A stretch of DNA of 54,793 bases, filler included, from Jimgerdemannia flammicorona (Eukaryota), in the NCBI GenBank assembly GCA_003990765.1. It is 2 parts of 2 records of this genome, joined end to end, with 100 filler letters (N's around TTAATTAATTAA, not from the genome) between each part and the next. Parts side by side here need not be neighbours in the genome. Positions count along the whole stretch, not along the records: positions 1 to 27,349 come from RBNJ01000636.1; 1 more part is not named here. One strand, written 5' to 3'. The notes below the pieces were generated by a model. It saw only the letters and a program-made list of their open reading frames with translations, made no database searches and was not told where the DNA came from. Shown piece by piece: positions 1-45,454 of this stretch. The translations under genes and the position numbers were made by a program. Positions within the stretch are counted from its first letter, which is position 1; every line of letters begins with the position of its first letter.

Positions 1-3000
1 CCTATCTCCATACCCTAATCTAAACTCCATATCTCAACCTGACTCTGTCTCACATACTCTCTACCACACTCTCCTGAAAAAGACCACTTGGTTATTAACC
101 ATCACCACCTGCCCACTACTCTGTTCAGAGATCTCTTCTACCAGATAGTGATGGTATATATCCTGGAGACTCTATCCAACCCACCACCCTGTCATCAAAT
201 CTCCCATCAACTCCTCTCATCTGAACAACCTCTTCTGTAAACCCAGCTGTTACCCCTCCTCAAAAACAAAGAGCCAATGTCCAGCTAGCCCACCCATATA
301 TCTAAAACCTACCCTACAGTGAGCCATTTATTGCCCACACCACAACCTAGATTTCAAATCTTCCCAGCGACCCCTCTCTCCATCTGGTCACCTCTTCATA
401 CTTAGCCAGTCTCCTATTGCTATTCAAAAGTCTCCCAGAACCTTACACTCTCCTAGCCAATGTTCTGATATATGTACAGATCTCCCAACTTATCCTATAT
501 TGTAACACTCCTTATATTCTATTTGTCCACCATCTACTAGATATTCAGTATGGAAATTCAACATGATATTCCTCTACAGTATCTGCCACCATACTACTCA
601 GAACTTGGGAGGAATCCACCTCTGTACCTCAGCACTCTATGACCAGACTCCTGCCTAGTCCCACTCCTTACCAATTCTCACTGCCTGCCAACTACTTGGC
701 CAAAGATCCTGACCAAGTCCCCTCTGACACTCTACTCCATTACTAATATCAAACTTAGTAAGTGAAGTGCCCCCCAAAAGCAGTCTGTCCTATCTCATAG
801 CTGGTCCCCATAGTCTCTCCCCCCCATTGCTATACCAGCACAGGTCTATGCAGTATGCTCCATCTACCATCCTCCACTAGAAGTCTTTATATTATAGCCA
901 TTGGCTCCCACTCAGATCTACCAGAGATAGCAAATCTCCTGAGGACCCTTGTGGGGCAAATCTCCTCTCCCACACCTTCTGCATCAGTGGCACCCATCCT
1001 CCTCCCTACAGCTCAACAGTCCATTTCAACCACTAAACTCTCAGATAGTAAAGCCTCTTAGGAAAATCCACCAGTTCTAGCCCTCTATAAACTACCAGCA
1101 TTGCAAGGGTATCCCAACTAATCTGGGACTACCTCTCTGCCCAAATCCAATCTCTAGTCAGTTTCATCAGTCTCTTCACTAACCAAGTTAGAAAATCTAA
1201 GTAATAAGTAATATACCATAGCTTGGAGAACCAGTAGATATTCAGAATTGATACCTGACCCACCAGGGAGATATAGTGATCTCCCCAATCTCTAAGAGCC
1301 TCCCCCCAGATGGTCACCCTCCTCTCCCACCATATCTATGACAAGACAGATCCATATACCAAAAGGAAGATACTGAAATACTGTACTACCTCTCTTGCAG
1401 AGACAATTATTCCAATGATATCCTCTCTCACTAGTTCATTTTCTAGCACTATTGTCTCACACTTATGCCAGTTGAGTTTTGCTCCAGAGTGTGCCTCATA
1501 TGTACCATTCCACCATCTTCTTAAGAGTCTCAACATCTGCTACTAATCTAAGTCCAACTACCATATCATCTGCAAAGGCCCCATCTTCCACACTACACTA
1601 TAGATAGAGAGCTCTGCTATCTTCTGTTGAATCCTATCCAACAAAGGTTCTAATGAAAGGGCATATAGAATAGAGAACAGTGGATCTCCCTGAGGAACTC
1701 CTCTCCCTAAGGGAAATGTCAGATCCTGGTGACCATTATACATCAGTACTGCCCTACTGCTCTCCAACAGATTCAACATAGAAGCTTGAAATCATGGGGA
1801 AACACAAATTCTATCCAGCACCTTCCCCAGCCACACCTGCCAAATATGGTCATAGGCCTTCTCCTGGTCCAAAAAGACCAGTCTCCTATCCAATCCACTA
1901 GCCTGTGCCCCTTCAATGATTTTATGGACCCAGGTCATCCTATCTCTGATAAGTCTACCTCCAACAAAGTTCCACTTCTATTCAGAAGAACAAGGTCACA
2001 GAGGGCTGCCATCTCTTCTAAAACTTCAGAGACCTTCACCATCCTCTTCCAAAAGTCTCAAGATAACTCATCTTCTCCTGGAGCTATCAAGCTTTTTTGC
2101 TACAAGGACTCTCTGGATCTCCTCTTATTGGACTGGTATATAAAATATCCCAGGCCCTCTACTTGTGGCAGTTCCCAATCCTCCAGCATGTCTCCAATTG
2201 CTCCTTCATCAGCACCCCCTTCCTACTCACTCCACAGACCCCTCCACTGCTCCTTCAGTAATCCCAACATCTGTTGTGTACCATGTACTATTTCCCCCTC
2301 TGCATCAAGGACTCCTTCTCATCGATGTCACACCCTTCTAGCCTGGAGGAGTCTTGATAAGTATCTAGTAGGCCTCTCTCTCTCCTCAAGCCTCTGCTAT
2401 CTCTGTCTAGCAGCCATTCCTTTTATATGCATCTCCTCCTCCTCCCTCAGCACCTGTTCTCCAATTGTCCATCTCTCCAGAATTTATCAAATCTGCCCAT
2501 TCTATCTATAATCTAACCAACCTATTGGAAGCATACCTTACTCTTTTCCTTTACTATCTCCCAGCATCTCTACCAGCCCCTCCCCAGTAAACTCTCACAG
2601 CCTCTTTCAACTTTATCCATCTGACACCCACTGGTAAACTCTCATGTATCCAGCTAGCAATCTTCACTTGGATGTCTTTTATCCATGGGTCCCATAATAT
2701 CTTCTCAGCTAGTAGAGAGGAGTTAATATATCAATGTCTGGGTCCATCTCCACTCCTCCCAAACTGTCCCTGCCCTAATAGTTCCCAGTGGTCTGACCAC
2801 AGGCACCACTCTACCTTCAGAGTCTTCCAAATATCTATGTCTTAGCATTCAGCTGTCAGGATCCAGTCAATTCTTGTACCTAGTCCATTCACTCAGTGTA
2901 TGTAGATCCTCTTCTCTCTCTATCATATTCTGCCTATATCCCCTAAGAAGCTAAGGTTCTCTACCTCTTTCCATGAATCCAGGCCACCACTCCTTCCACC

Positions 3001-3320
3001 AGTACTCCTCCCTCTATCAGTTCTATCTAACTGAGGATTCTACACCATATTGAAGTCTCTTCTCAGAACATCTATCCCCTACTCTAAGAGAGTGCCCTCT
3101 TCTAAAAGACTCTTAATCTATGTAATCAGCTCACTCCTAGATGCCAGACAGTAGTAAGAGCCAACTCTCACTGGCTCCCACTCAGGTAAATACCATTCCC
3201 CCCATACCAAACAGTCTCCCCAGCTCCTGATTCTACCTAAATCTCCTTTACCACTCTACATCAAAATTGCTACTTTATCAGTCTATACTATAGCTCCTCT
3301 CCATTCTCTAGTCTATGGAG
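1..3320 (-). mobile_element. L1/Tx1-clade LINE (family A), degenerate ORF2: endonuclease C-terminal part, RT and C-terminal zinc finger; 3' end lies outside the window
   Basis: Minus-strand motifs GRGVPQGDPLFSILYALSLEPLL (1558-1779), FADDM (~1562-1576), FLDQEKAYD (~1850-1877), GAKLNW, LNIYWFSKLWY, WSDHW (~2790) and GDFN-like (~3050). Collinear with the plus-strand LINEs later in the window; many stop codons. Confidence 0.93.
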
Positions 3321-3821
3321 GTGGAGGAAGAAGGCCCAGCTGGAGCCAAGGGAGTGAACCCAGAGCCAGTGTCAAAGTGAACGGAAGATATGTGGAAAGG
3401 CATATATAAGGGGAATGAACAAAGAATGTAACTGAAAATGCATCAGCCATTTATTGCCATATAAAAATATGGTCCTTATATACAAATACAATGTCCCAAA
3501 AGGGAGGACATGCCACAACTCGGGGCAAACCAAATTAGGAACCACATGACCGCTGGAGATAGGCGGAGATAAAGTGGGAGCCAATCCCAGTTACAGGATA
3601 AAAATTACAAACAAACACAAACAAAACAAATCCAAATCAAGATTAAAAAACATCCACAGACCCCAGAGGGGTGAGTGTGAGTGAGGGGTGAGGCCAAAAT
3701 AGAGCGAGCTGCAGCAAGCCTGAGCGAAGCAGGGGGCCAAAGGCAGTAGAGGGGAGCAGAGTAAGGCTGAGACCCCAGAGCGAGCGCGAGACCCTAGAGG
3801 GGGCAAGGATGTTTTTTAATC
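3321..3821 (-). repeat. 3' pseudo-LTR of left PLE
   Basis: Direct repeat of 6979-7480; contains the 15-bp inverted repeat pair 3641-3655 / 3807-3821. Confidence 0.93.
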
Positions 3822-5899
3822 CTCTCCAGCAGAGCCGGAGGCACCAGAAGGTGATGAAAACACAAAACAAGAGTGATGGATTAAAGAAGAAACAGAAGGA
3901 AGTTGCAAATAAGCAATCAGAGGGCATCAGGAAAGAGATGAAAGTCCATAGTGAGAAAGAGAAGAGTGCAAGACAGTATCAGGGTGTTGAGCAACCCAGT
4001 GAGCACGATCAAATGGTATGACAAGAATCAGGGGTGGGAAAGAAGAGGGGGTATGGAGAGAGTAAGGGGGGAGAGAGGGGAGGAAGGGGGGGTAAAGAGG
4101 AGAGAGTAGGGAAGAGTGAACAACAGACCATTCAATAGAAGCAAGCAGATCGTGAATGATAGAAATAGGGTATGTATGATGATGGACCACAAAGTTGCCA
4201 AGAACCCGAACAGCACACACCCAATCAGAATGACAGGAGCAGCATAATGCAAGACAACGAGCCTCACTATGAACACATTCAAGAAGAGTGCAATGAGGAT
4301 GATTGGACAAGAAGTCAGGAAACTGTTGAGAATGAGGAAAACGGGAATAAACAATAGTTCAAAAAGGAGAAAGAGAAATGGAAAGGTCCAAAAAGGGAAT
4401 ACTAGTCATACCGCACACCTAAGTAATAGAATGGTGGGGAGGGTAGATACCCAGGAACATACTAGAGATATTAATACCAGTAACAGCAAGACAATAAAGT
4501 CATCAATATATTGGCGAAAGAAGATATCCCCAGCCCAGAATGCAATGGAAAGAGGTGAAGAAACATCATGTAACACATGCAATTCATGGGTCAGGCCAAC
4601 AAGGTTGGCAAGAGTGGGGGCACAATTTGTACCTATGGCAATACCAGAAGTCTGGTGAAAGGAGCCAAGAACTGACTCAAAATAATTCAAGCTGCAGACG
4701 AGGAGCATAAGCTCAACAATGGAAGCCAGCGAACCTGGGGAATCCAAAGGAAAAACAATGGAACCCAAGAAGTGAAGGCAATCATCAATCTCATCAAAAC
4801 GAATAGCAGTATAAAAGGAGGAAAAGTCACCAGAGGCCAAATGGGAAAAATGGTGAACAGGCACAATGGTGGAGCATAGAAGGGCAAGCTCCTGAGTATC
4901 ATGAAGAATAGTATACTCAGGCCCAAGACAATGTTGTAAGAGAGCCATCCAGGAGAGAAAGAAGTGAGATAACTACTTCAAAATCTCAGTGGTAGAAGAA
5001 CTATAAGCAGCCATAATGAGATGCCAAGCCAAAATAGGCTTGTGAACTTTAGGAAGAGCATAAAAAACTAGAAGAGAAATATCCGGAGAGGACAAAGAGT
5101 CCTGGCAGAAGTTAAAAATGGGGTTCATAAATAGGGAGTCCAAAAGCAATCTGGCACGAGCCAGAGAAACCCAAAGAAGAGTGAGAATCTCATCCAATCC
5201 AAGAGCACTAGGCTTGTAAGCTGTGGCTCAAAGGAGGGCAGAAAGGCCATCAAGGTAGAGTGACTTAGGAATAAGTGCAAAACCCTGATTCTTATCAGTG
5301 ACTGTAAGCAAATATATAGGCAATTGCTTGACCAATTTAAGCACAGTATGCATGGCATGGTCTGAAACCAAGCAAGAGTGAGCATATCCAGGAACGGACA
5401 GTGAGCAGGCCATGTCGAGGAATACACAGTGTGAAGAGACATTGGGAGGGGGGACCCAATTGCTAGGAACAAAATAACAAGAGGGCATCTCACCACAATC
5501 TTGGAAGAAAATGGCAAGGTCAAGAGCACGACGAAAATGTGTGAGATGAGCCGGATCAGTGAAAGAGAATTGTGAGGGAGTTGCAGGAAAAAAAAAGCGA
5601 GGACCCAAGGATAAGGCAAAGACTTGAAGGGGAGAAAGAGGGCAGTCAGCCGGAGAAAAAAGAGAAGACAAAAGAGCTCCAAGAGAAGAGTAAACCCAAA
5701 AGTTTGGGATAAGCAACTGGGAAAGGCAAAGGGGGGACAATATGAGGAACCACTCAGGGCATACCAGAAGCGATGACAGAATCCGAGAAGGGACAGGGAC
5801 ACTGGGGGAGAACCATGCTGGGGGGAAGTTTAAGAGTGGGAGGCCTTCCCCTTCCCTCTGACTTTTTTTGAAGGTGGCAAGCCCAACGAACAGAAGCAC
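3816..5899 (-). pseudogene. PLE reverse transcriptase, left copy (several stops, frameshift near 4490)
   Basis: ORF pieces 5228-5899, 4973-5197, 4406-4948 and 3927-4310; YIDD catalytic motif intact; ends ...AGED-stop at 3816. True start not determined. Confidence 0.9.
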
Positions 5900-7007
5900 A
5901 CCCCGTCAGAGTGCCAGACCTTGCAGCCACAGGCTTTCATGCAGTCCTTACATTCAGGGGCACAAGTGGAGGAGGTGGAGGAAGAAGAACTGGCAGAGGA
6001 GGCCGAAGGCGAGTGAGCAGCCGAAGGGGCAGCAGCATAAGAAATACCACTGTAAGGACAGACAGACTTGGCCAGGTGCCAGTAGGCATGGTGGAGGCGA
6101 CCGGAGCAGACAGCATAAGGCCAGGCCCTGATAGGGTGAGAACCAAGTTGGCAGCCATGCTTGGGGGCAGGGGGAACAGAGGAGGAAGCCTTGGCAGGGG
6201 AGGGAGACTGGGAAGAGGCTGATGAAGCCTGGTTGGGCTTGGCAGGGGTCTTGGCAGGGGTCTTGGAGGGGGCCTTAGCAGCAGCGGCAGCAAAGGAATG
6301 AACCTCAGCATGAGCAGCAGCGTGAGCTTCAGCACGAATGGCCTCAGAGACCGAAACCTTGGGAGAGGCAGGCAGGGGAGCAGTAGCGGTGGCGTGAGCA
6401 GCAGTGGCAGCATGTGACGTCTCCTGCTCATGAAGGCAAGCAACAAAAGATGTGCTGGCAAGGAGAAATGATACACAGCATCGATGTCAGTGGTGACAGA
6501 AGGAATGTCTTGGATGGCGAAGCCACAGAAGGGAGCAGCATCCAAAAGGCGAAAGGAGGTGAAGGCCATGAAGGCGGCACAGGCATGGTGGAAGGAGGTG
6601 GAAGCAGTAGTGGCAGAAGCAGCAGCAGCATCAGTGGCGGCAAGCTTGGCAGCAGCAGTGGTGGCACGAACCTCTTCAGAGAGGGCTTGGCAGCAGGCCT
6701 CAGGGAAAATGGAGTAGCAGATGGTGGGTGAAGTAATGATGTTGATGTCATGGCGGAGATGAGCCTCCTTGGCAGAGAGGGCAAGAACTGACCGGAACTA
6801 GGAGAGGAGCAGACGACCAGAGGGATGAAGGTCCAAGGGGAGGGAAAGGATGGTGGATGAGATGTATGTCTCAAACAAGACAGTGGCAGTGGTGAAGGTG
6901 GGGGGAGGAGGAGGAGGAAAAGCCCCATCCATGAGCTCGTCGACGAGGACAGAGGCCCCGAGGGCAGGCAGTACAGCAGCAGAGGAAGAAGGCCCAGTGG
7001 GAGCCAA
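5754..7007 (-). pseudogene. PLE ORF1, left copy (disrupted)
   Basis: Mirror of 7773-9026; 6798-7007 translates MAPTGPSSSAAVLPALGAS; 1-nt deletion near 6465 relative to the right copy. Confidence 0.65.
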
Positions 7008-7480
7008 GGGAGTGAACCCAGAGCCAGTGTCAAAGTGAACGAAAGATATGTAGAAAGGTGTGTATAAGGGGGATGAACAAAGAATATAATCAAAAATGCA
7101 TCAGCTGTTTATTGCTACATAAAAACATGGTCCTTATATACAAAATACAACATCCCAAAAGAGAGGATGTGCCACAACTCGGGGCAAACCGAATTAGGAA
7201 CTACATGACCGCCGGAGATAGGCAGAGATAAAGGGGGAGCCAATCTCAGTTGCAGGATAAAAATCACAAATAAACACAAACAAAACAAATCCAAATCAAG
7301 ATTAAAAAACATCTGCAGACCCCAGAGGGGTGAGTGTGAGCGAGGGGTGGGGCCGAAATGGAGTGAGCCCCAGCGAGCCTGAGCAAAGCGAGGGGCTGAA
7401 GGCAGTAGAGGGGAGTGGAGTAAGACCGAGACCCCAGAGTGAGTGTGAGACCCTGGAGGGGGCAAGGATGTTTTTTAATC
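6979..7480 (-). repeat. 5' pseudo-LTR of left PLE, including the palindrome pivot
   Basis: Direct repeat of 3321-3821; inverted repeat at 7300-7313 / 7466-7480. Confidence 0.92.
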
Positions 7481-7772
7481 TCGATTTGGATTTGTTTTGT
7501 ATGTGTTTGTTTGTGATTTTTATCCTGCAACTGGGATTGGCTCCCCCTTTATCTCTGTCTATCTCCGGCGGTCATGTGGTTCCTAATTCGGTTCACCCCA
7601 AGTTGTGGCATGTCCTCCCTTTTGGGACATTGTATTTTGTATATAAGGACTGTATTTTTATGTAGCAATAAATGACTGATGCATTTTCGGTTACATTCTT
7701 TGTTCATCCCCCTTATACATACCTTTCCACATATCTTCCGTTCGCTTTGACACTGGCTCTGGATTCACTCCC

Positions 7773-9026
7773 TTGGCTCCCGCTGGGCCTTCTTCCTCCA
7801 CTGCTGTACCACCTGCCCTCGGGGCCTCCGTCCTCGTCAACAAGCTCATGAATGAGGCTCTTCCTCCTTCTCCTCCCCCCACCTTCATCCCCACCACTGT
7901 CTTGTTCGAGATGTACATCTCATCTACCATCCTTTCCCTCCCCTTGAACCTTCATCCCTCTGGTCATCCACTCCTCTCTCAGTTCCAGTTGGTTCTTGCC
8001 CTCTCTGCCAAGGAGGCTCATCTCCGCTGTGATATTGATGTCATCACTCCGCCCACCATCCACAACTCCATTCTCCCTGAGGCCCGCCACCAAGCCCTCT
8101 CTGAAGAGGTTCATACCACCACTGCCACTGCCAAGCTCGCCACCACTGATGCTGCTGCCGCTTCTGCCACCACCACTTCTGTCTCCTTCTACTGTACCTG
8201 TGCCGCCTTCATGGCCTTTGCCTCCTCTCGCCTTTCAGATGCTGCCCCCTTCTGTGGCTTCGCCATCCAAGACGTTCCTTCTGTTGCTGCCAACATCGAT
8301 GCTGTGCATCATTTTCTCCTTGCTGGCACATCTTTTGTTGCTCACCTTCACGAGCAGGAGATGTCATGTACTGCCGCTGCTGCTTGTGCCACCACCACTG
8401 CTCCCCTGCCTGCCTTCCCTGAGGTTTCGGTCTCTGAGGCCATTCGTGCCGAAGCTTGCACTGCTGCTTGTACTGAGGTTCATTCCTTCACTGCCACCAC
8501 CACCAAGGCCCCCTCTAAGACCCCTGCCAAGACCCCCGCCAAGCCCAACCAGACTTCATTGGCCTCTTCCTGGTCCCCCTCCCCTGCCAAGACTTCCTCC
8601 TCCATTCCCCCTGCCCCCAAGCATGGCCACCAACTTGGTTCTCGCCCTATCAGGGCCTGGCCTTGTGCTGTCAGCTCTGGTCGCCTCCACTGTGCCTACT
8701 GGCACCTGGCCAAGTCTGTCTGTCCTCATAGTGGTATTCCTCACACTGCTGCCCCTTTGGCTGCTCGCTTGCCTTTGGCCTCCTCTGCTAGTTCTTCTTC
8801 CTCTGCCTCCTCCACTCATGTCCCCAAATATAAGGGCTGCACAAAAGCCTGTGGCTGCAAGGTCTGGCACTCTGACGGGTGTGCTCCTATTCATCGGGCT
8901 TGCCACCTTCAAAAAAAGTCAGAGGGAAGGGGAAGGCCTCCCGCTCTTAAACTTCCCCCTGGTGTGGTTCTCCCCCAGTGTCCCCATCCCTTCTTGGATT
9001 CCATTGTCACTTCTGGTGTGCCCTGA
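7773..9026 (+). CDS. PLE ORF1: Ala/Pro/Ser/Thr-rich protein with a C-terminal Cys/His cluster; start codon uncertain
   Basis: 417-codon open frame upstream of RT with CAVSSGRLHCAYWH and CTKACGCKVWH motifs. The C/T-rich strand makes long ORFs likelier by chance, hence moderate confidence. Confidence 0.65.
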   Translation: MAPAGPSSSTAVPPALGASVLVNKLMNEALPPSPPPTFIPTTVLFEMYISSTILSLPLNLHPSGHPLLSQFQLVLALSAKEAHLRCDIDVITPPTIHNSILPEARHQALSEEVHTTTATAKLATTDAAAASATTTSVSFYCTCAAFMAFASSRLSDAAPFCGFAIQDVPSVAANIDAVHHFLLAGTSFVAHLHEQEMSCTAAAACATTTAPLPAFPEVSVSEAIRAEACTAACTEVHSFTATTTKAPSKTPAKTPAKPNQTSLASSWSPSPAKTSSSIPPAPKHGHQLGSRPIRAWPCAVSSGRLHCAYWHLAKSVCPHSGIPHTAAPLAARLPLASSASSSSSASSTHVPKYKGCTKACGCKVWHSDGCAPIHRACHLQKKSEGRGRPPALKLPPGVVLPQCPHPFLDSIVTSGVP

Positions 9027-10964
9027 GTGATTCCTCATATTGTCCCCCCTTCACCTTTCCCAGGTGCTTGTCCCGAACTTTCAGGTTTACTCTTCTCTTG
9101 GAGCTCTTTTGTCTCCTCCTTTTTCTCTGGCTGACTGCCCTCTTTCTCCCCTTCAAGTCTTTGCCTTATCCTTGGGTCCTTGCTTCGTTTTTCCTGTGAC
9201 TCCCTCACAATTCTCTTTCACTGATCTGGCTCATCTCACACATTTTCGTTGTACTCTTGACCTTGCTATTTTCTTCCAAGATTGTGGTGAGATACCCTCT
9301 TGCTATTTTGTTCCTAGTAATTGGGTCCCCCCTCCCAATGTCTCTTCACACTACATATTCCTTGACATGGCCTGCTTGCTATCCATTCCTGGATGTGCTC
9401 ACTCTTGCTTGGTTTCAGACTATGCCATGTATACCATGCTTAAATCAGTCAAGCAATTACCTATACATTTGCTCACAGTCACTGATAAGAATCAGGGTTT
9501 TGTACTTATTCCTAAGTCACTCTACCTTGAGGCCTTTCTGCCCTCCTTCGAGCCATGGCTTACGAGCCCAGTGCTCTTGGATTGGATGAGATTCTCACTC
9601 TTCTTTGGGTTTCTCTGGCTTGCACCAGATCACTTTCAGACTCCCCATTCATGAACTCCATTTTTAACTTCTTCCAGGACTCTTTGTCCTCCTCGGATAT
9701 TTCTCTTCTGGTTTTTTATGCTCTTCCTAAAGTTCACAAGCCTATTTTGGCTTAGCATCCCATTACGGCTGCTTACAGTTCTCCTACCACTGAGATTTTG
9801 AAGTAGTTATCCCACTTCTTTCTCTCCTGGATGGCTCTCTTATAACACCGTCTTGGGCCTGAGTATACTATTCTTCATGATACTCAGGAGCTTGCCCTTC
9901 TATGCTCCACCATTGTGCCTGTTCACTGTTTTTCCCATTTGACTTCTGGTGACTTCTCCTCCTTTTATACTGCTATTCATTTTGATGAGATCGATGATTG
10001 CCTTCACTTCTTGGGTTCCATTGTTTTTCCTTTGGATTCCCCAGTTTCGCTGGCTTCTATTGTTGAGCTTATGCTCCTCATCTGCAGCTTGAATTATTTT
10101 AAGTCAGCCCTTGGCTCCTTTCACCAGACTTCTGGTATTGCCATAGGTACGAATTGTGCCCCCACCCTTGCCAACCTCATTGGCCTGGCCCATGAATTGC
10201 GCACATTATGTAATGTTTCTTCACCTCTTTCCATTATGTTCTGGGCTGGGGATATCTTCTTTTGCCAATAAATTAATGACTTTATTGTCTTCGCTGTTGC
10301 TGGTATTGATATTTCTAGTATGTTCCTAAGCATCTACCCTCCCCACCATTCTATTACTTGGGTGTGCAGTATGACTAGTATTCCCTTTTTGGACCTTTCC
10401 AATTCTCTTTCTCCTTTTCGAACTATTGTTTATTCCCATTTTCCTCATTCCCAACAGTTCCCTGACTTCTTGTCCAATCATCCTCGTCGCACTCTTCTTT
10501 AATATATTCATGGTGAGGCTTGTTGTCTTGCATTATGCTGCTCCCATCATTCTGATTGGGTGTGTGCTGTTCAGGTTCTTGACAACTTTGTGATCCATCA
10601 TCATGCCTACCCTATTTCTATTATTCATGATCTGCTTGCTTCTATTGAATGGTCTGTTGTTCGCTCTTCCCTACTCTCTCCTCTTTACCCCCCCTCTCTT
10701 CCCTCTCTCCCCCCTTACCCTCTCCATACCCCCTCTTCTTTCCCACCCCTGATTCTTGTTGTACCATTCGATCATACTCGCTGGGTTGCTCAATGCCCTG
10801 ATACTGTCCTGTGCTCTTCTCTTTCTTACCATAGACTTTCATCTCTTTCGTGATGCCCCCTGATTGCTCATTCATGTCTTCCTTCTGTTTCTTCTTTAAT
10901 CCATCACTCTCGTTTTGTGTTTTCATCACCTTCTAGTGCCTCCGGCTCTGCTGGAGAGGATTAA
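8880..10964 (+). pseudogene. PLE reverse transcriptase, right copy (stops, frameshift near 9530)
   Basis: ORF pieces 9040-9654, 9555-9755, 9915-10271, 10320-10502 and 10560-10853; read-through ends PLIAHSCLPSVSSLIHHS...AGED with TAA at 10962-10964. Start is approximate. Confidence 0.9.
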
Positions 10965-11460
10965 AAAACATCCTTGCCCCCTCCAGGGTCTCGCACTCGC
11001 TCCGGGGTCTCAGCCTTACTCCACTCCCCTCTGCTGCCTTCAGCCCCTTGCTTTGCTCGGGCTCGCTGCAGCTTGCTCCATTTTGGCCTCACCCCTCACT
11101 TACGCTCACCCCTCCAGGGTCTGTGGATGTTTTTTAATCTCAATTTGGATTTGTTTTGTTTGTGTTTGTTTGTGATTTTTATCCTGCAACTGGGATTGGC
11201 TCCCCCTTTATCTCCACCCATCTCTAGCAGTCATGTGGTTCCTAATTCAGTTCACCCCAAGTTGTGGCACATCCTCCCTTTTGGAACGTCATATTTTGTA
11301 TATAAGAACTGCATTTTTACATGGCAATAAATAGCTGATGCATTTTCGGTTACATTCTTTGTTCTTCTCCCTTATACACACCTTTCCACATATCTTCCAT
11401 TCACTTTGACACTGGCTCTGGGTTCACTCCCTTAGCTCCCACTGGGCCTTCTTCCTCTGC
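10959..11460 (+). repeat. 3' pseudo-LTR of right PLE
   Basis: Reverse complement of 3321-3821; inverted repeat GATTAAAAAACATCC at 10959-10973 / 11125-11139; TATAAG ~11301 and AATAAA ~11326. Confidence 0.93.
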
Positions 11461-11745
11461 TCCAGCCTTCAGTATCTCAGAAAAGCTCCTCTCCCACTGC
11501 CCTTCTGCTCCTCCCCCAGCACTGCTACTACTGCCAGAACTACCCTGCCCACTTGGACCCCCAAAAGATCTCATCCCTAATCTATACCCTCATCTCATAT
11601 TTTGCCAGTTGAAGGCTCCAGGTCCACCCAATCTAGTATATATATTAGCTCACATATTGGTTGCCATAATCTTAGTACCTTTTTCTAATAAATATCTTGA
11701 AAGTATGTTGTAAAAGTGTGTGTAATGTGAATGGTAGCTGAGAAA
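11461..11745 (-). mobile_element. Probable 5' UTR and ORF1 N-terminus of the family A LINE
   Basis: Minus strand reads MRSFGGPSGQGSSGSSSSAGGGAEGQWERSFSEILKAG; upstream ACAACATACTTTCAAGATATTTATT resembles the LINE 5' UTR ACAACATATTTTCAAGTTTTTATT at ~49113. Boundary uncertain. Confidence 0.6.
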
Positions 11746-11749
11746 GGTA

Positions 11750-11892
11750 ATGGTTAGTCATCATTACTCATCTTATAGCCTAGGTGAGTTATACTGTATA
11801 ATCTTCTTGCACTCCAATCTGGTGGCTTATAAGGAAAGGCTATCTCCTGTGATGATATCATTATTCTGAGGTCACCATTACATCTTTCTTCT
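11750..11892 (-). repeat. Partial 3' LTR of gypsy G1 with polypurine tract
   Basis: Minus strand AGAAGAAAGA (11883-11892) is followed by TGTAATGG starting at 11882; the far LTR end is not securely identified. Confidence 0.55.
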
Positions 11893-14800
11893 AAATAAGG
11901 ATCTTCTCTTGAACATTCTTATTCATTAGTCCAGTCTGAAAAATTTGCTGATCCGGCAGGGGGTTGAAAAGTGGTATTTATAGACTAGTATCTTTTTTAT
12001 ATATTTTGGCATAATGGTAAAGGACTACTCTCTTCATATAGAGCAAGGGTCTGATTTTGATCTTGACTAACCAATTGATAGTTCAAACTCCTCTGGCTTT
12101 GAAAGTCTCATAGATAAGTAGTTGCTGGTATCATATTTCTTAAAGAATGGTCTAGACAGATTGCTTGCTAGTCATGAGATATGTTGTTATAATTTGCAGA
12201 CTAGAATCTCATAGGTAGTTATCATATTTTACTTCTCTTGTATAGGTTTGTAGTACTTCTTGAGTTTGTTCCTGTATACTGTGATAGATAGTATGGTCTC
12301 TGAGAGTTTTCTAAGCCAGAAGGTAGTTCTCTTGATATCTTACATGTAGAAGAGTTCTTCTCATTTGGGCTCCAGTTTTTGTAACCATGAGGCTTCTACT
12401 ATATTTTAATATAGTAGAACCTTTTCTACAATTTGGATGGATTCTAGGGTCTTGTAATTCTTTTCTATATTCTTTCTTATCAGTACTTGTAACTTGATGA
12501 TGTAATCTTTAGCCTTCTTCCTGATTTGATGCAGTCTCTGGATTTCTGAGTCAATCTATCTCTAAGTTAGATCTAGATTTATGACTGAGATTCCATCAGA
12601 ATCTTCTTCTCCAAAGAGCAGTTCTCTTGGGATAAAGTGTATACTCTGTGACTATATATCTTATAGAACAGAGAGGACAGTTAGGAGGTAGTTATTCCAA
12701 TTGTCATATGTGTCTGAGATCTTTGCCAGAATATTTTTAAGAGTTTTGTTGGTTCTTTCTATCTGTCTATTTTCTTGAGGATAGTGTATAGTGGTCTTGA
12801 TATACTGAATCTTATATTTCTGATATATTATCTCATGGAAGCCATTGATAAATTCTGTGCCATGGTCTGTGGTAATTTGCCTTGGTGTCTTGTATCAGCA
12901 GATAATTTCTCAGTACAAGAAGTCAGCTATAGAGAGAACATTGGCTTCTTGTAATACTCCTACTTCTATCTATTTGATAAAGAGGTCTATGATAACTATA
13001 ATGTAGCAGTTTCCTAATAGTATTACTGGTAGCAGTCTAATGATATCTATTATGATGTGGTGGAAAGAGATAGGCTCAATTCTTGATGACTCAGATGCCT
13101 GGTCTTGCTGATCTTATTTCTGTTTTTGGTACTTGTCATACCCTTTGACAAATTGGTACAGGTCTTCTTCTATCTTGGGCCACCACATAGTTCTTCTTGT
13201 CTTGTTTTATATATTGGTTCCTCCTAGGTATTCTCGTTTATATACTTCTTTCATTACTTGATACTTCTTATATTTGGGTATTATAAGCTTTCCTCCTTTT
13301 TTGAGTATAGTGTTGTCTAGTTCAAATTATTTCCAAGTCTGGTTAATAATGAGAATAGTCCAGAGTTTGAGGTGGTTGGGTATCTTCTGCTGTCCAAGAT
13401 GACTGATTAATCCATAGTATAGCTCCTTATTCATGTTGAATAGTCTTGATGGGGTGTTTTGGAGTATCCTTGAGAGTATATCAGCATTGGCATTAGTTCT
13501 TCCTGAGCAGTGCTTGATAGTATAGTCATACTCTTACAGCCTGTAGATCTATCTGGTATATATTCCTTTAGGGTTCAGAGTGTGGAATAGCTTGGCAAGA
13601 GAAGAATAGTCTGTTTGAATAGTGAAGTGTTTTCTGACTAGATAGTAGTGGAACTTGTCTACTGCCCAAACTACTGCTAAGTATTCTAGCTTAGTTCTAT
13701 CTGCTCCCTGGGTACCTTGGCTTATATAGGAGATGATATATTTATGTTCATTTTTCTTCTGAGCTAGAACTGCTCTAAGTTCTATAATACTTACATCTGT
13801 TTGCAGGATGAACTCTAGGTTCCAATCTGGTCTTCTGAGGATGGATGCTTGGGTCAACCTAGTCTTGAGTTTATTAAAGGTTTCTTGACATTCTTTGGTC
13901 CATTCAAACTTGGTCTCCTTCTTCAGTAGCTCATAGATAGGTACTGTAATATTAGAGTAACCTTTGATAAATCTTCTATAGTAGGAGACCAGTCCAAGGA
14001 AGGCATGGACTTCTATAGTTGTTCTGGGTCTTGGGTAGGCTATAATAGTCTCAATCTTCATAAAGTCTGTGTGAATTCCTATCTAGTTGATGATGTGTTC
14101 TAGGTAGGTGATTTCTTGAGCTGTAAACTTACACTTCTTGGGCTTAATATAGAGACCATGCTCCTTGAGCTTCTTGAGAGCTAGCTGTATATAGTTGACA
14201 TATATCTGTACAGTATTGCTGAAGATGATCAAATTATCAATATAGATAAAAAGCTATTTTCCAATCTCATTGCTGAAGACTCTGTTCATTATTTACTAAA
14301 AACTTGCTAGGGTATTGCAAATTCCAAATGGTATTTGCAGGTAGACATAGGTGGTGTTAGGTATGATAAAGGCTGATTTCTCACTGGTATCTTGAGTGAG
14401 ACCCATCTGATGAAAGCCTGAGAACAGATTCAAGATAGTATAATATTTGGCTTCATTTCTAAGGGTGGTAAGGATTTCTTGAATATTTGGCAAGGGCTGC
14501 CTATCCTTCTTGGTGATTGCATTAAGCTTTCTGTAATCAATGCAGAGTTTTGGGGCAAACTCTCCAGGCTTGCTTTCTTTCTTTGAGACAAGGACAATGA
14601 GTGAAGCCCAGGAACTAATAGTTTACTTGATAATACCAGCTTCTTCTATTTCCTTAAGTTCTGCTTGCAGCAATTCTCTGTAGACAAGTAGTATGGGTCT
14701 GGCTTTCTGATAGATGGGCTTGGTATTATCAGTGTCAACTTCATGATAGTACTTGAGTTCTTGATTGTAGATGTCCCTGAAGTCTGTGGTGAGTACTCTT

Positions 14801-14929
14801 TCATTCTGGTATAGGATCTTGAGAAGTTGTTTTACAAGAGAAAAGTTTTCTCCAATGATATATGTGTACTTATTCTGGTCTTTATCTTTCTTGTACTTGA
14901 GTTTGGTAATCTTAGTAGCAGTATAGGCT

Positions 14930-15330
14930 CCTCTTCCAGTAGATCCAAAGTCTTGTTCTTCTCTCTTGGTCTTGATGAATTTGATGGCTTTAGTGATCTT
15001 AGGCTTCTTGACTTCATAGATCAGCATCTGGCCAATTCTGTCATACTTCTTGACTTTGAATGGGGTGGTAGGATTGTGATTCCTAACTATGAGAAAGATT
15101 CTGTCAGTATAATCAGGGTCGATTACTTCTCCTTCAACTGAGATTTTACTTTTGGCCAGACTACTTCTGGACTTGATAATTCCAGCATAGTTCCCTAGCA
15201 ACCTGACTCCAATTTCAGTGCCAAGTAGAGTGATGGTCTGTGGTTTAAGGATAGCATCTTGAATGCTGGCAAGGTCCATTCCTATGGCTCCTTCAGTCTT
15301 ATATTCTGGTATCTTGGCTTCAGGATGAAA
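14930..15330 (-). pseudogene. dUTPase domain of G1, between protease and RT
   Basis: MDLAS, KSRSSLA, VIDPDYT, DRIGQML and REEQDFGSTG match dUTPase motifs 1-5. Confidence 0.92.
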
Positions 15331-16121
15331 CTTCTTAATCTTAAGAGTAATGACTGGTTCTTGTTTCTCCTCATAATTACTGTCAACTTGAAGCTCTGGA
15401 GGCTGGTCATCTTCTTTAGCTTTCCTTTTTGCTTTAGCAGCTTCTTGCTCATACTTTTGTTGACAGATTTTTCTGACTTCACTAATATAGGACTAGCAGT
15501 CATTCAGGTGTTCAGTGCAGTACATCTTAGTACCATGAGGACATATTTCTTGAGAGGTATAGTCATTGATGATCTTGTTGTACCACTGCTCATCTGTGAG
15601 CTTGGGTATCTTGTTCTTGTTCTTATATACTGAGTATATGAAGACTTCTGTATCTTCTTCATCTCCTTTCTCTATGTCTGGTAGAATTTATTTGTGGATA
15701 TTGATAGAGACTTATATCTTTTTTTCTCTATAGTTGATCTGTATCTTCTGGGCATTGAGGTCAATGATAGTCTTGGTCTTGTGAAACTATTAGTTGCCAA
15801 TAAGGATATCATAGTTAGTGGTACTTGTAACAATCATGTCTACTGGAATGGTAGCTCCTCTTATCTTGATGGGAACTTCTCAGATCTTGCCTAGAGGGGT
15901 AGCTTGTATACTATTTGCTGTAACATAGACCATTTTGATAGACTCTTCAATATCCCAGCCTAGGTGGTCAATTATCTTCTTACTTATGAAGTATCCTTCA
16001 GTACTGGTATCAATGATAGTATCAAGATATAATCTTCAATCTGATAAAGGGTATAGGCTGATGTTTTGTACTAGTCTTCAGATTCTTTACCTGAGTTCTC
16101 AGATTCTTCTTATATATTATG

Positions 16122-18504: not shown

Positions 18505-18917
18505 AAAAGAGAGGGGGGAGGAGGGTGCATTCTCACTACTCAAAAGGGGAGAGGGGTTCCAAATAGTGCCTTAACTAAGATATATATATATTCTTTTTAT
18601 CTAGCTTTTCAAAAGGAGAGGGTGGAGAGAGGTTTGAAATGGTGCCTTAACCAAGGTATATAATTATATACTTTTTCCTTTTATTCAGCTTCTCAAAGAG
18701 AGAGAGTATGTGCTTGCCTCATCTCACTGCTCATTCTAACTTTTCAAAAGGGGAAGGGTTCAAAATAGCACCTTAACTAAGGTATATAATTATATACTTT
18801 CTCTTTTTATCCAGCTTTTTGAAGGGGGAGAGGGTGTGTGCTTATCTTGTTTTGCTGCTCATTTCAGCTTTTTGAAAGGGAGAGGGTTCAAAACAGTGCC
18901 TTAACTAAGGTATATAT
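18505..18917. repeat. Minisatellite (~75-130-bp units), left part
   Basis: Four copies of the core GCCTTAACTAAGGTATAT...TTTTATCCAGCTTTT. Confidence 0.9.
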
Positions 18918-19385
18918 TGTAACATAGTGAATACTTACTCTTGAAAGTACATCAGATTTCTGTATCTTGAATACTTGATCTTCTCTGACTCCTTGGAGTC
19001 CTTGGGATGCAGGGGTGGATGAGTTCAAAGTGTATCTGCCCATGGGCTTACTAGTTCCTTTGCTATCTCTTTGCTTTTGAACTATTTCGATCAGAGGTTT
19101 ATTCACTCTAAGATACTGGGTTATTTATACAAGTTTTGCTAACTATAAGGTGGCTAAGTAATGGCTCATTTCACAAGTATTGAATCTTTTAACATCTGCT
19201 AAGATTTTGCTGATTGTGAAGATTTTAATATCTTCTAAATCTTTGCAAATGTTAAAGTTTCTGCACTTTGTGGAATATGGCTGCTATTTTTATGAGGCTA
19301 AGCTATATTGGGAATTGGATTCAGGTATTATGATCAAATGTCTAATTCCTCTGTTTCATGTTACTAATTTGGATCAGCTGTCACA
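18918..19385 (-). repeat. G2 3' LTR, polypurine tract at 19386-19395
   Basis: TGTAAC...TCACA termini; near-identical to 25167-25634; adjacent minus-strand AGGAGGAAGA. Confidence 0.95.
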
Positions 19386-19888: not shown

Positions 19889-21070
19889 GATACTTCTTGA
19901 GTTGGTTTTGGTAGATGGTAGTGGGGATGATTGTGCCTGAGAGTTTTTGTAGCCAAAAGGTGGTTCCTTTTATATCTTGCACAAGGTAAGGTCATTTCTA
20001 CTTGGGCTCCAGTTTTCGTAACTATGAGGCTTCTACCATGTTCTGATATACCAGAACTTTGTCTCCTATCTTGATAATCTCCAGGGGTTTGTGGATTTTT
20101 TCTGCATTCTTCCATTGTAGTGCCTGTGCCTTCATTATGTAATTCTCAGCCTTCTTTCTGATTTAGTGTAGTCTCCATATTTCTCCATCCACATGTTTCC
20201 ATACAGTATTCTCATTGAACGATAGGGTTTCTTGAGAACTTTCTTCTCCAAACAGCATTTCTCAAGAGGTAAAGTGGGTACTTTGTGATCTGATATCTCA
20301 GAGAGCAGATAATGCTATTGACAGATAGTGATCCCAGTTTTTATAGTTATTGCAAATCTTGGCAATAACATTCTTGAGGGTCTTATTGGTCCTTTCTGCT
20401 TGTCTGTTTCCTTGAGAGTGATAGGCTGTAGTACGAATATGCTGGATCTTATACTTCTTGTAGAGAACCTCAAAGAACTGGTTCACAAATTCTGTTCTTC
20501 TATCTATAGTTACTTGCATTGGAGTCTTGAACTGGCAGATGATTTCTTTGTAGAAGAAATTGGCAATTGACTGTACATTGACTTCCTTGAGGGGTCCTGC
20601 TTCTATCCACTTCATAAAAAGGTCTACAATGACAATGATATATCAGTTGCCAGTCAGAGTCAAGGGTAGAGGGCTGATTACATCCATTGCTATGTGGGCA
20701 AATGGTACTGGTTCTATTGTATTGATCCTGGGGCTTGGTTTTATTGGTCTTGTTTCCATTTCTGGCATTTGTCACAGGTTTTGACAAATTGTCTGATATC
20801 TTTCTCTATTCCTGGCCACCATATCATTCTTCTTGTCTTGTTGTATGTATTCATTCCTCTTAGATGGCCAAGTTCATGTACTGATTTCATTGCTTGCTCC
20901 TTCTTGTGTTCTGGTATGACTAGTAGTTTTCCTTTCTTCAGTGTTTGTCCATCAGTTTCAAATTGTTTCTATGTTCTGTTGATAATCATTTGCATCCATT
21001 CTTCCGGATGTTGGGGCATCTTTCGCTATCCCAGATATGTGATGATTCCATAGTAGAGCTCCTTATTCAT
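19869..21070 (-). pseudogene. G2 integrase (HHCC finger, core, GPY/F module)
   Basis: MNKELYYG start; KWIEAGPL, TAYHSQGNRQAERTN and KLEPK-K-PYLV motifs. Confidence 0.9.
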
Positions 21071-22579
21071 AATTGATTTATTGGTTGGAGGTATTTTGAG
21101 GTGTCCATGATAGAGTATCTGCATTGGAATTTGTTCTTCCAGAGTGGTGTACAATGGTTACATCATAGGCTTATAACTTCATTATCCATCTGGTATAGAT
21201 TCCTTTGGGTTGTCCAGTTGACAGTAGCTAGATGAGAGCTGAGTGATCTGTCTGAATGGTGAAGAGTCTTCCAGTCAGGTAGTAGTGGAACTTTTCCACA
21301 GCCCAGATGACTGCAAGGCATTTCAACTTATAGGATTCATATTGTTTTTCAGCTCCTCAGGTTCCTTGGCTTAGGTATGCAATGATATACTCTTTTTTGT
21401 CTTCCTTTTGAGCTAGAACCACTCCTAGTCCTTGTGCACTTGCGTCTGTCTGAAGGATAAACTCTTGGGTCCAATTGGGTCATCTGAGGATGGGTGCCTG
21501 GGTCAGTCTGACCTTGAGTTCATCAAATGCTTTTTGTTGTCTGCCAGTCCAGTTGAATTTAGTGTCCTTCTTATTGAGTTCATAGATTGGATCTGCAATA
21601 TTGGAGAATCCTCTGATAAATCTGCGATAGTAGGAGGTAAGTCCCATGAAGGCTTGGGCTTCTGTAACAGTGGTGGGCCTTGGGTATGCTGCTACTACTT
21701 GTATCTTGAGGGGGTCTATGTGCATTCTATCTTGATTAATAATATGGCCAAGGTAGGAGATCTCGATTTCTGCAAATTTGCATTTCTTGGGCTTGATATA
21801 CAGGCCATACTTTCTCAGTCTTTCTATTATCTGCCATATGTGCTGCAGGTGTTCCTCAGGTGTCTTGCTGTAGATGATTATGTCATTGACATAGACCATC
21901 ATCCATCTTCTCAAGTCATAGTGGAAGATTTTGTTCATCATTCGCTGAAAGCTTACTGGTGCATTGCACATCCCAAATGGCATTCATAGGTAGATGTAGG
22001 TTCTGTCTGGGGTGATGAAGACTGACTTTTCACTTGCCATCTCTGTGAGTCTGATTTGGTGGAATCCTGAGTATAAGTCCAAGGTACTATTGTACTGTGC
22101 TTTATCTCCCAGTATTATAAGGATGTCACTGATAAGGGGCAGTGGTTGGCAATCCTTCTTGGTAACTGTATTGAGCTTTCTGTAGTCGACACAGAGTCTT
22201 GGGGTGAATTCCCCAGGTCTGCTTCCTTTTTTCGAGGCTAGTACAACTGGTGAAGACCAGGGGCTGCTGGCTTCTTTGATAATACTAGCTTCTTCCATCT
22301 GCTTGATTTCTTCTCTGAGCCATTCTCGGTAGGCTGGTGGGACAGGTCTTGCCTTCTGGTAAATTGGTTCGGTGTCTCTGATATCTACCTCATGATAGTA
22401 GTGTGGGGTCTTTCCCTTGATATCTTTGAAATCTATAGTGAGGATATCCTCGAATTCATGGAGTATTTTCTTGAGTTCCTCCTTGAGTGGAAATTCATTT
22501 CCAATGGTGTAACTGTGCTTGTTTGTGATTTCCTCCTTCTTATGCTCCAGTTTAGTAATCTTGGTACTAGTAAATACTC

Positions 22580-22965
22580 CTCTTCCTGTGGATCTGAATC
22601 CTTTCTTTCCTCTTTTTGTTTCCTCCAAATTCTTGACTTCTATGATCCTTGGTTGTAGGATTGGAAAGATCAACATCTGTGCCAATTGGTCCTTCTTCTT
22701 GACTGGGAATGGGATTGTAGGATTATGATTCCTAGCAATGAGCAGGATTTCTCCAGTATAGTCAGAATTGATGACTCCTTCTTCAATCATAATTTTGCTT
22801 CTGGCCAGGCTGCTTCTTGTCTTAAGGATCCTGATATGATCCTTTGGGATAGTTATCTCCAGTCCAGTTGCGAGTAGGGTGGTTGTTTGGGGTTCTAGTA
22901 CAGCTTCTTCTACTGTGGTGATGTCCATTCCAGCTGCATTTTCCGACTTGTATTCTGGCAAGACT
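22580..22965 (-). pseudogene. G2 dUTPase domain
   Basis: AAGMDI, RSSLA, GVINSDYTGEI, QLAQML and RGKKGFRSTG within ORF 21984-22961, in frame with the RT N-terminus. Confidence 0.93.
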
Positions 22966-25166: not shown

Positions 25167-25634
25167 TGTAATGTAGTGAATACTTACTCTTGAAAGTATG
25201 TCAGATTTCTGTATCTTGAATACTTGATCTTCTCTGACTCCTCAGAGTCCTTGGAATGTAGGGGTGGATGAGTTCAAAGTATATCTGCCTGTGGGCTTAC
25301 TAGTTCCTTTGTTATCTCTTTGCTTTTGAACTATTTTGATCTGAGGTTTATTCACTCTAAGATACTGGGTTATTTATACAAGTTTTGCTAACTATAAGGT
25401 AGCTAAGTAATGGCTCATTTTGCAAGTTTTGAATCTTTTAACATCTGCTAAGATTTCACTGATTGTGAAGATTCTAACATCTCCTAAATCTTTGCAAACA
25501 TTAAATTTTCTACACTTTGTAGAATATGGCTGCTATTTTTATGAGGCTAAGCTATATTGGGAATCAGATTCAGGTACTGCGATCAAATGTCTAATTCCCC
25601 TGTTTCATGTTACTAATTTGGATCAGCCATTATA
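25167..25634 (-). repeat. G2 5' LTR with primer-binding site
   Basis: Copy of 18918-19385; minus-strand TGGTGCCCATTGG starts 3 nt inside the LTR boundary (25151-25163). Confidence 0.93.
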
Positions 25635-26529: not shown

Positions 26530-27323
26530 AACCAAGAATGAAGATACACCTCCACTGTGCTCCCCCCCACCATCTCCTCTTCCAACTTTATCAATAGCTC
26601 CTTCTGAATTTGCCTCTCTTGTGCCCACTCCTAGGACACCCAATCTAGCTGCACTCTCTTGTTATTGACAATCTCTACCACTATCTTGGCCTCATACTTC
26701 TTCCAGACCAATCTCCTCCTCTCTACCACTCCAGCCAGATCTTCTGATACCTCTAGCAAGTTCTCTTCCTCTTCCAGCATCCTCTTCACCCATGATACCT
26801 TGTACTCCACAGAACCCCACTTTAGAACTGCTGGTCAGTCCCTCACCTTCTCTATATTCTTCTTGCCTACCAGCTATGTATACTCTGATATCTACATCAC
26901 CAGTTCTGAACTCAGTGCCCTCTCAGACCCTAAACCCAATATCAACAATCTCTCTATACTCCTTGATGGCCTCTACAATCAATCCCCTGGCCATCTTCTT
27001 TGATATATTTAATGTATCCAGTACTGTCAACTGTACCATATAAGGATTCCAGTGCAAGCACTATGCCATAGAGATTGTCACCCCCCTCCCACTACTACTC
27101 CCTTCTCTATTGCCTCCAACATCACCTCTTCTTACTCAAATCCAATCTTCACTCCTTTCCATCTCTTCAAAAACTTCACCAAGGTAGCCTCCTTTACCTC
27201 CTAAGCCAGAAGCTCTAGAATCATTCTCACTGTAACCACTAAGTCTCAGAAGTATAACATAATGGTGAATTCAGACCTTGATTTCTTGAGTAACAGAGCT
27301 ATCACCAGTCCTATTATACCATC
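26530..27323 (-). pseudogene. LINE ORF1 fragment from a divergent L1/Tx1 family
   Basis: Minus strand VKIGFE-EEVMLEAIEKGVVV...CLHWNP...EIVDIGFRV-EGTEFRTG aligns with VEIGFVVEEEMVKALEKGLVI...CLRWDP...EMVDFGFMFWERTKLRNG of the ORF1 at 32676. Confidence 0.8.
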
Positions 27324-27349: not shown

Positions 27350-27449
27350 NNNNNNNNNNNNNNNNNNNNNNNNNNNNNNNNNNNNNNNNNNNNTTAATTA
27401 ATTAANNNNNNNNNNNNNNNNNNNNNNNNNNNNNNNNNNNNNNNNNNNN
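27350..27449. other. Assembly gap with artificial TTAATTAATTAA linker
   Basis: 44 N + TTAATTAATTAA + 44 N, flanked by poly(T) and poly(A) contig ends. Confidence 0.97.
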
Positions 27450-34520: not shown

Positions 34521-34532
34521 ACATTTATATCC

Positions 34533-45440: not shown

Positions 45441-45454
45441 GAACACATTCAAGA

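Follow-up and report, generated by a model that had tools for sequence, protein, structure and literature searches.

Introduction

In the standard insertion of a Penelope-like element (PLE), a full copy stands behind a truncated tandem copy, named pseudo-LTR (pLTR; LTR, long terminal repeat), and an inverted, 5′-truncated copy often abuts the upstream pLTR (PMC3846280, PMC8557442; all papers given by PMC number are cited from excerpts of their texts). Palindromes are described at these inverted junctions, with head-to-head as the commonest orientation, and in one Pen2a copy the inverted and the direct pLTR overlap by 15 bp (PMC3846280, PMC8557442). Here we analyse a stretch of 54,793 nucleotides from Jimgerdemannia flammicorona (assembly GCA_003990765.1; two parts joined by 100 filler letters), hereafter the window, in which a near-palindrome of ~8.1 kb is formed by two dead head-to-head copies of one PLE with no detectable endonuclease (EN).

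Craig et al. (2021) hold that the cleavage properties of the GIY-YIG endonuclease very likely determine the complex tandem and inverted pLTR structures (PMC8557442). In vitro, the purified protein of an EN-bearing (EN+) PLE cuts both strands of its target and extends them (Frangieh et al., 2024; PMC11167929), an activity that leads directly to two opposed cDNAs. A hammerhead motif in the pLTR is a mark of PLEs that the Naiads do not have. EN-less PLEs attach to chromosome ends (PMC8557442, PMC13159263); in the Coprina copies so far described, telomere repeats stand on both sides, and the direct terminal repeats of Coprina-1_Alen reach 422 bp (PMC13159263). According to Arkhipova et al. (2013), the EN-deficient PLEs of fungi and protists do not have the tandem/inverted organisation (PMC3846280). 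EN-minus PLEs are also described at internal sites, namely PLE-X (Chlamys-related; Selaginella, Chara) and MjPLE01 (Neptune-like; kuruma shrimp), the PLE-X families having canonical hammerheads, a CxC motif and either 28S rDNA targeting or genome-wide spread (PMC8557442).

The Jimgerdemannia locus shares with the canonical EN+ PLEs (Penelope/Poseidon, Neptune, Naiad and Adineta vaga Pen, as far as the excerpts describe them) the partial tandem pLTR, the 5′-abutting inverted copy, the short overlap or palindrome at the inverted junction, the head-to-head orientation and the common 3′ terminus. It differs from them in that the inverted partner, in their case a short truncated pLTR, is here a second full unit that carries a pLTR itself, and in having no GIY-YIG domain, 30–40-bp tail, target-site duplication (TSD) or hammerhead in the searches given below. 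The palindrome layout itself is thus the ordinary "inverted plus partial tandem" architecture of PLEs, and the "self-made giant palindrome" that an earlier note on this DNA had put forward as a novelty is already standard for them (PMC3846280, PMC8557442). What is unusual here is the EN-less lineage and the setting without telomere repeats; the surprise is lowered by the EN-minus families at internal sites and the Coprina terminal repeats already known from the papers excerpted. Among the titles and abstract openings of the papers listed by our literature searches, we found no report of a head-to-head pair in an EN-less PLE.

Two head-to-head copies of one PLE

The segment 3321–11461 is a single long inverted repeat, interrupted by small indels only, the blocks of which are 87–92% complementary (repeat search; Table 1). 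Sequence and module alignments resolve the PLE unit into a body B followed by a module a and a module b, the latter serving as pLTR. The left copy is composed of a full unit (B + a + b) with a 5′-truncated unit (a + b) ahead of B. Each arm is longer than one unit and possesses its own direct pLTR, with the same start-to-start spacing of 3659 nt in both arms (repeat search), a feature missed in the earlier note. When the right arm is compared with the whole window by blastn, these two PLE copies are the only matches. Coding runs outward in both arms, as testified by the alignment of residues 1–404 of the closest relative, P0001, at 9723→10922 (+) and 5056→3858 (−) (tblastn). Repeat search, blastn, module alignments and coding direction together agree with the coordinates and the head-to-head geometry first proposed for the two copies.

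The central module a, whose interior is oriented as the left copy, can be aligned from end to end with both of the remaining a copies, at 87–88%. Its region has a single-stranded DNA (ssDNA) fold with z = −4.6, and the outer right module a has an RNA fold with a 16-bp closing stem (z = −2.1).

Table 1. Coordinates of the PLE pair, its modules and coding regions, and the surrounding features in the window
Feature	Position	Strand	Description
Left PLE copy	3321-7480	-	4160 nt; a-b-B-a-b; 3′ end at 3321
Right PLE copy	7466-11460	+	3995 nt; last 15 nt of a, then b-B-a-b; 3′ end at 11460
Body B of PLE unit	7802-10958	+	3157 nt
Outer right module a (module a of PLE unit)	10959-11139	+	181 nt
Outer left module a	3641-3821	-	15-mers at 3641-3655 and 3807-3821
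Central module a	7300-7480	-	181 nt; bracketed by 15-nt inverted repeat
Outer right module b (pLTR; module b of PLE unit)	11140-11460	+	~321 nt
Outer left module b (pLTR)	3321-3640	-	
Inner left module b (pLTR)	6982-7299	-	
Inner right module b (pLTR)	7481-7801	+	
Inverted-repeat block	3484-4487/10293-11296		repeat search
Inverted-repeat block	4488-5248/9531-10291		repeat search
Inverted-repeat block	5243-5903/8877-9537		repeat search
Inverted-repeat block	5902-6468/8313-8879		repeat search
Inverted-repeat block	6466-7313/7467-8314		repeat search
RT, thumb and C-terminal module, right copy	9723-10964	+	single frame with in-frame stops; LPKVHKP, degraded YxDD
N-terminal conserved region, RT (YIDDFIV), thumb and C-terminal module, left copy	3858-5905	-	two in-frame stops, one frameshift
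Upstream part of body B	7802-9026	+	1.2 kb; GC-rich, low-complexity, Ala/Ser/Thr/Pro-rich, Cys/His-rich end
Left flank	1-3320	-	decayed antisense copy of poly(A) non-LTR retroelement family
Right flank	11461-12253	.	793 nt; pyrimidine-rich on + strand
Sense copies of non-LTR family	32511-38305, 39663-45443, 49053-54793	+	~5.7 kb, 70-81% alike
LTR-type retroelement interiors	12254-16100, 19891-23738	-	67% alike; dUTPase, RT, RNase H

Divergence and age of the arms

The two arms show 400 mismatches over 3984 aligned sites (10%) and only 14 gap events. In the body, transitions outnumber transversions by 302 to 13 (302/315, 96%), and 79 sites read TG in one arm and CA in the other, which corresponds to double-hit CpGs. 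The observed/expected ratio of CpG is 0.29–0.30 in the arms; for the window as a whole it is 0.09, and TG and CA are overrepresented there. Once the CG, TG and CA contexts are set aside, 65 of 2551 sites (2.5%) distinguish the arms. This spectrum is the biological decay of methylated CpGs, and a fold-back read, in which one molecule is read twice, is therefore ruled out by an arm divergence of 10% that is of CpG-transition type with few indels. The PLE arms are less CpG-decayed than their surroundings, and the divergence of the repeats consists almost purely of CpG-type transitions. Mutation resembling repeat-induced point mutation was also considered and set aside in favour of CpG decay, the apparent CpA bias being explained by the 79 CA/TG double-hit sites.

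The same data bear on two explanations that we hold, taken together, to be improbable: an inverted duplication of one insertion at the DNA level, by fold-back at a short inverted repeat, or a misassembly joining two separate copies. Short inverted repeats can indeed seed fold-back inversions, but fold-back normally carries flanking DNA along, whereas here both arms stop at the 3′ terminus of the element and the flanks are neither related to each other nor inverted copies of each other (flank alignment, repeat search). Tandem and inverted PLE structures are said to cause assembly problems (PMC8557442). Against a misassembly stand the difference of the arms at 10% of sites, in CpG-type transitions and with few indels, which does not fit one folded read, and the 15-nt overlap, which would probably be too short for a false join in usual assemblers; moreover, the sole N runs of the window fall within 27350–27449, far from the PLE pair.

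The repeated modules within the arms give a view of their relative ages. The four b copies are 88.7–92.5% identical across all six pairs and the three a copies 87.2–90.1%. Among the b copies, the 2:2 site patterns split 6/4/6 over the three possible groupings, in a star-like manner, and the copies group neither by arm nor as inner versus outer ones. Since the repeat copies are equidistant, all of them were identical at about one time. This points to a common origin time of all repeat copies, as expected from one episode with one template sequence.

Coding content and relatives of the element

Three-frame translations reveal LPKVHKP, a motif B of the GIAIGTN type and YIDDFIV, followed by a thumb-like region; we take LPKVHKP and YIDDFIV to be hallmarks of PLEs. 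The Pfam model RVT_1 matches the reverse transcriptase (RT) of the window weakly (E 0.0032). A search of 1.84 billion representatives with a 188-aa RT piece (4409–4972, minus strand) returned 54 PLE-like proteins at E ≤ 1e-3, the best of which is P0001 (406 aa, 46% identity, E 2.6e-35); a word-indexed homologue search with the same piece against longer proteins gave no scoring match. The right copy aligns with residues 1–404 of P0001 at 44% identity (E 8e-90, tblastn), and when 64 relatives (P0001–P0064) are compared with the window by tblastn, their matches are confined to kb 3–4 and 9–10. A second search, with P0001 as query, yielded 71 proteins, the closest being P0065 (554 aa, Gigaspora margarita) and P0066 (622 aa), both of which begin with M. 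Other relatives that carry source names are P0003 (Racocetra fulgida) and P0005 (Stenamoeba).

The open reading frame (ORF) of the right copy ends ~110 aa past the thumb and 12 codons past the end of the P0001 alignment, its stop codon TAA (10962–10964) falling within the first 15-mer of the outer right module a. P0001, P0065, P0066 and the window ORF all terminate at the same C-terminal module (PPxILV..YD......P..L......PI......L..S), with no nuclease domain after it. With Pfam, GIY-YIG was found in none of the 13 window ORFs of at least 100 aa, nor, at E ≤ 0.5, in any of the 55 sense-strand ORFs of at least 40 aa in both arms; as a control, the same model is positive in 4 of 80 related proteins. 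The RT matches, the absence of GIY-YIG from the sense ORFs and the C-terminal end shared with the relatives uphold the earlier claim of a PLE without a detectable endonuclease.

We placed the RT in a quick IQ-TREE tree of 94 rows and 440 columns, built from a fast alignment of proteins of at least 380 aa after the near-identical P0055–P0064 had been dropped. The window RT and P0001 form a sister pair with a support of 99 in the Shimodaira–Hasegawa-like approximate likelihood ratio test (SH-aLRT); the tree program flagged the window row for unusual composition. Both belong to a clade of six rows (SH-aLRT 100) that also holds P0066, P0034 and two Glomeromycota proteins. All four GIY-YIG-positive proteins lie in a separate clade of 21 rows (SH-aLRT 98), together with salamander and arachnid proteins. 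The RT, whose phylogenetic placement the earlier note had raised, thus groups with EN-less, partly fungal relatives and apart from the GIY-YIG clade, in a tree whose rows are unnamed or partly named. Judged from these sequence comparisons, the element is a nuclease-less PLE related to the EN-less PLEs of fungi and protists.

No hammerhead ribozyme was detected: Rfam gives no match at the gathering score in the whole window and, at E ≤ 10, only two unrelated, chance-level matches in 3000–11800, and the core CUGANGA...GAAA is absent from both strands of 3201–11600. The locus resembles Coprina (fungi, some protists) and Athena/Terminons (bdelloid rotifers) in its RT-only protein ending soon after the thumb and in the fungal origin of the nearest named relatives of its RT (Gigaspora margarita, Racocetra fulgida), and it resembles Coprina-1_Alen in its direct terminal repeats. 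Members of these groups are described in the excerpts as terminal, telomere-bracketed and equipped with hammerheads, whereas the locus has neither a hammerhead nor telomere repeats of the common types. The label "Athena/Coprina type" given to it earlier is therefore backed only in part, by the EN-less, partly fungal kinship but not by the hallmarks of telomere repeats and hammerheads. PLE-X and MjPLE01, as these are described, likewise have no nuclease domain; unlike PLE-X, the locus has no hammerhead, and the affinities of its RT are to EN-less proteins of fungi and metagenomes, away from the GIY-YIG clade.

Pivot and outer junctions

The pivot of the palindrome is the 15-mer GGATGTTTTTTAATC at 7466–7480, in which the two 5′ ends overlap: it forms the last 15 nt of the right-copy module a and, for the left copy, is complementary to the 15 nt with which its module a opens. 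As module a is bracketed by a 15-nt inverted repeat, GATTAAAAAACATCC ... GGATGTTTTTTAATC, with a spacer of 151 nt between the 15-mers, the pivot is one of the two arms of an inverted repeat that belongs to the element itself. At the other extremity, the outer ends at 3321 and 11460 both stop on the identical element base, ...CTTCCTC-YRC. This is also the b|B boundary base at both internal junctions, so that one terminal base is common to all four b ends. A 5′ fusion at a shared 15-bp sequence and a common element position of the outer ends had both been described in the earlier note, and both are found at these positions. Neither outer end has a 30–40-bp tail; both halt at the unit boundary without extension.

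No TSD could be found. Local alignment of the 300-nt flanks scored 16, compared with 13.8 ± 2.6 in shuffles, and the longest word common to the 30-nt junction flanks has 7 nt and lies away from the junction. The earlier statement that a TSD is lacking agrees with both comparisons. This result weighs on the possibility that the pair arose by ordinary target priming, with a trans-acting nuclease or at a chance pair of nicks, and that a short TSD has since been erased or masked by decay or by a small target deletion. Such an origin would account for an architecture equal to that of EN+ PLEs (PMC8557442, PMC3846280), and it has precedents in the EN− PLE-X families, which insert genome-wide or into 28S rDNA (PMC8557442); the region is also decayed, as the window-wide CpG ratio of 0.09 indicates. 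Nevertheless, tblastn finds no GIY-YIG PLE and no further PLE RT elsewhere in the window, the clade of the window RT is without an EN-bearing member among the rows examined, and at a non-CpG divergence of 2.5%, a TSD of 8–10 bp would probably still be visible, yet none is seen. We consider this origin to be of low probability.

The junction sequences at both outer ends are non-telomeric, and the window contains no telomere array of at least three units of the TTAGGG, TTAGG, TGTGGG or TTTAGGG type, which are common types and may not be the host's. For the common repeat types screened across the window, the junctions are thus free of telomeric repeats, as had been claimed. An origin by fusion of two chromosome or break ends, each capped by an EN-less element with its 3′ end chromosome-ward and later joined 5′ to 5′ at the 15-mer by microhomology-mediated end joining, would be in line with the attachment of EN-less PLEs to chromosome ends (PMC8557442, PMC13159263). 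A head-to-head pair with outward 3′ ends is the expected product of joining two capped ends, and the flanks are indeed unrelated to each other. It is difficult to reconcile with the missing telomere repeats of common types, at the junctions and in the window, which bracket the described Coprina copies (PMC13159263). Furthermore, the equal divergence of the four b copies would require near-simultaneous additions from identical templates, and a chromosome formed by joining two chromosome ends would be dicentric, except where one of the partners is a fragment. A fusion therefore appears quite unlikely.

Proposed origin by priming on two DNA ends

We propose that two facing DNA 3′-OH ends would each have primed reverse transcription at the defined 3′ end of the element. 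As the element encodes no nuclease and no TSD is seen, these primers would have been the ends of a break that already existed. Each cDNA would then pass one unit boundary, either through a 5′-to-3′ jump between RNAs or through the copying of a tandem transcript, and this passage would leave the direct pLTR in each arm. The two cDNA 3′ ends would join through the 15-nt inverted repeat that brackets the 181-nt module just after the stop codon, and fill-in would produce the 8.1-kb near-palindrome. That an EN-less PLE generated this old, now-dead insertion complex in this manner, by two-end priming in a single episode with the cDNAs joined via the 15-nt repeat, is a possibility that we rate just short of even. 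We infer that two cDNAs were involved rather than one, and the bridging of a break by priming on two DNA ends is plausible.

A related process exists in LINE-1 elements, where, in twin priming and endonuclease-independent insertion, two DNA 3′ ends prime cDNA synthesis and microhomology joining gives an inverted product. The endonuclease-independent LINE-1 events are without TSDs and can patch breaks. Since the second primer of LINE-1 twin priming pairs with an internal site, the inversion affects no more than a part of one copy. LINE-1 belongs to another class of retroelements, and at the present locus both primers would lie at the RNA 3′ end, with two full copies as the product.

Several observations weigh against two-end priming. 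The case is a single locus, no further copy of the family being detected within the window by blastn, and it would be a single-case exception to what the excerpt of Arkhipova et al. states on the organisation of EN-deficient PLEs (PMC3846280). The left flank belongs to a non-LTR family and the right flank has no match, so that an insertion, a target deletion and an unrelated join are indistinguishable. In a region decayed by 2.5–10%, the absence of a TSD is weak evidence. Of 42 metagenome contigs with distantly related elements, described below, 20 point to head-to-tail or circular forms and none holds a long inverted repeat, although short-read contigs of 2–5 kb could not hold the palindrome.

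Finally, an identical product is expected if a single cDNA snaps back. One DNA end would prime one cDNA copying b-a-B-b-a, which, on reaching the start of the second module a, would fold back and copy itself: its 3′ end (GGATGTTTTTTAATC) would pair with the complementary 15-mer 151 nt behind and be extended back to the primer junction, the free end would be joined to the other DNA end, and fill-in would open the hairpin into a palindrome. The pivot suits such a fold, since it belongs to an inverted repeat of the element whose two 15-mers lie 151 nt apart; pairing within one molecule has a kinetic advantage, and as ssDNA the central region folds with the z of −4.6 given above. Snap-back also forces both outer ends onto one nucleotide, as seen, although identical outer ends are equally expected from precise 3′-end initiation on two primers. 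Self-priming has been inferred from palindromes at inverted PLE junctions (PMC3846280), but according to the same excerpt, self-priming on a sense template would give a tail-to-tail product, unless it takes place at the cDNA stage, as proposed here. In addition, an end-joining step to the second flank would be required, and the first module a encountered by the same cDNA triggered no fold-back. We rate snap-back as unlikely, though above the other alternatives to two-end priming.

An unambiguous instance of the complete architecture in a nuclease-less lineage would have consequences for how PLE architecture is understood. Its cause would shift to the RT and its RNA; EN-less PLEs would not be confined to telomeres and could end up at, and perhaps repair, internal breaks. 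The wider reading, in which the tandem and inverted architecture comes from the RT and RNA, through template jumping and built-in inverted-repeat pairing, and not from GIY-YIG, and in which an EN-less fungal-type PLE seals an internal break by a self-made 8-kb palindrome with both ends as primers, is somewhat doubtful. One decayed locus is a lead rather than a demonstration, and the new point would be only that an EN-less lineage can also make the head-to-head layout, away from telomere repeats.

Upstream frame and metagenome relatives

Upstream of the RT frame, the right copy alone has an open frame of 448 codons (7680–9026, +), which matches no Pfam family and could represent a gag-like ORF1 or a stop-poor 5′ leader. 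The Cys/His-rich stretch with C-x-C at its end lies in a frame that differs from that of the RT and is absent in P0065 and P0066. In the EN+ groups, GIY-YIG is C-terminal in Penelope/Poseidon, Neptune, Nematis and Hydra and N-terminal in Naiad and Chlamys; a CxC linker motif and an IFD in the RT further characterise Naiad, Chlamys and PLE-X. An N-terminal GIY-YIG of the Naiad/Chlamys type was not found by Pfam in the upstream ORFs.

A metagenome scan returned 42 loci (L001–L042) of 23–30% identity, with EN-less PLE-like ORFs of ~550–715 aa on contigs of ~3.1–4.9 kb. Terminal direct overlaps or tandem units are present in 20 of the 42 contigs, and L028:1-11359 consists of 3.5 tandem units of 3196 bp that are 99.98% identical. 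To judge from these overlaps and tandem units, elements of this kind may occur in uncultured eukaryotes as head-to-tail arrays or in circular form. Forty of the loci were also examined for an inverted repeat that resembles the pivot and lies close to the stop codon, and the feature was dropped, its position not being consistent: 34 of the 40 have a stop, and 10 of these 34 have any exact repeat of at least 10 nt, a count made with no shuffle control.

Flanks and neighbouring elements

On the left side, similarity to the non-LTR family, at the protein level, reaches ~3312, ~8 bp from the PLE junction (tblastx, nhmmer), and the left flank of the pair is a distant fourth member of this family. 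The right flank has no convincing relative in the window, where only low-complexity matches of E 0.006 or worse were obtained. The non-LTR family has a G-rich sense strand (GC skew about +0.45), and Pfam gives RVT_1 only, with no endonuclease domain. A fragment of the same family, in the same orientation, is found at 26755–27239, which hints that the host element may run on beyond the nested insertions.

A 462-bp repeat pair (18917–19378 and 25166–25627, 92.6% identity) may represent LTRs. The only N runs of the window, of 44 N each, are located at 27350–27393 and 27406–27449, ~16 kb from the PLE pair, and the second is directly followed by a run of 69 A, which extends to 27518.

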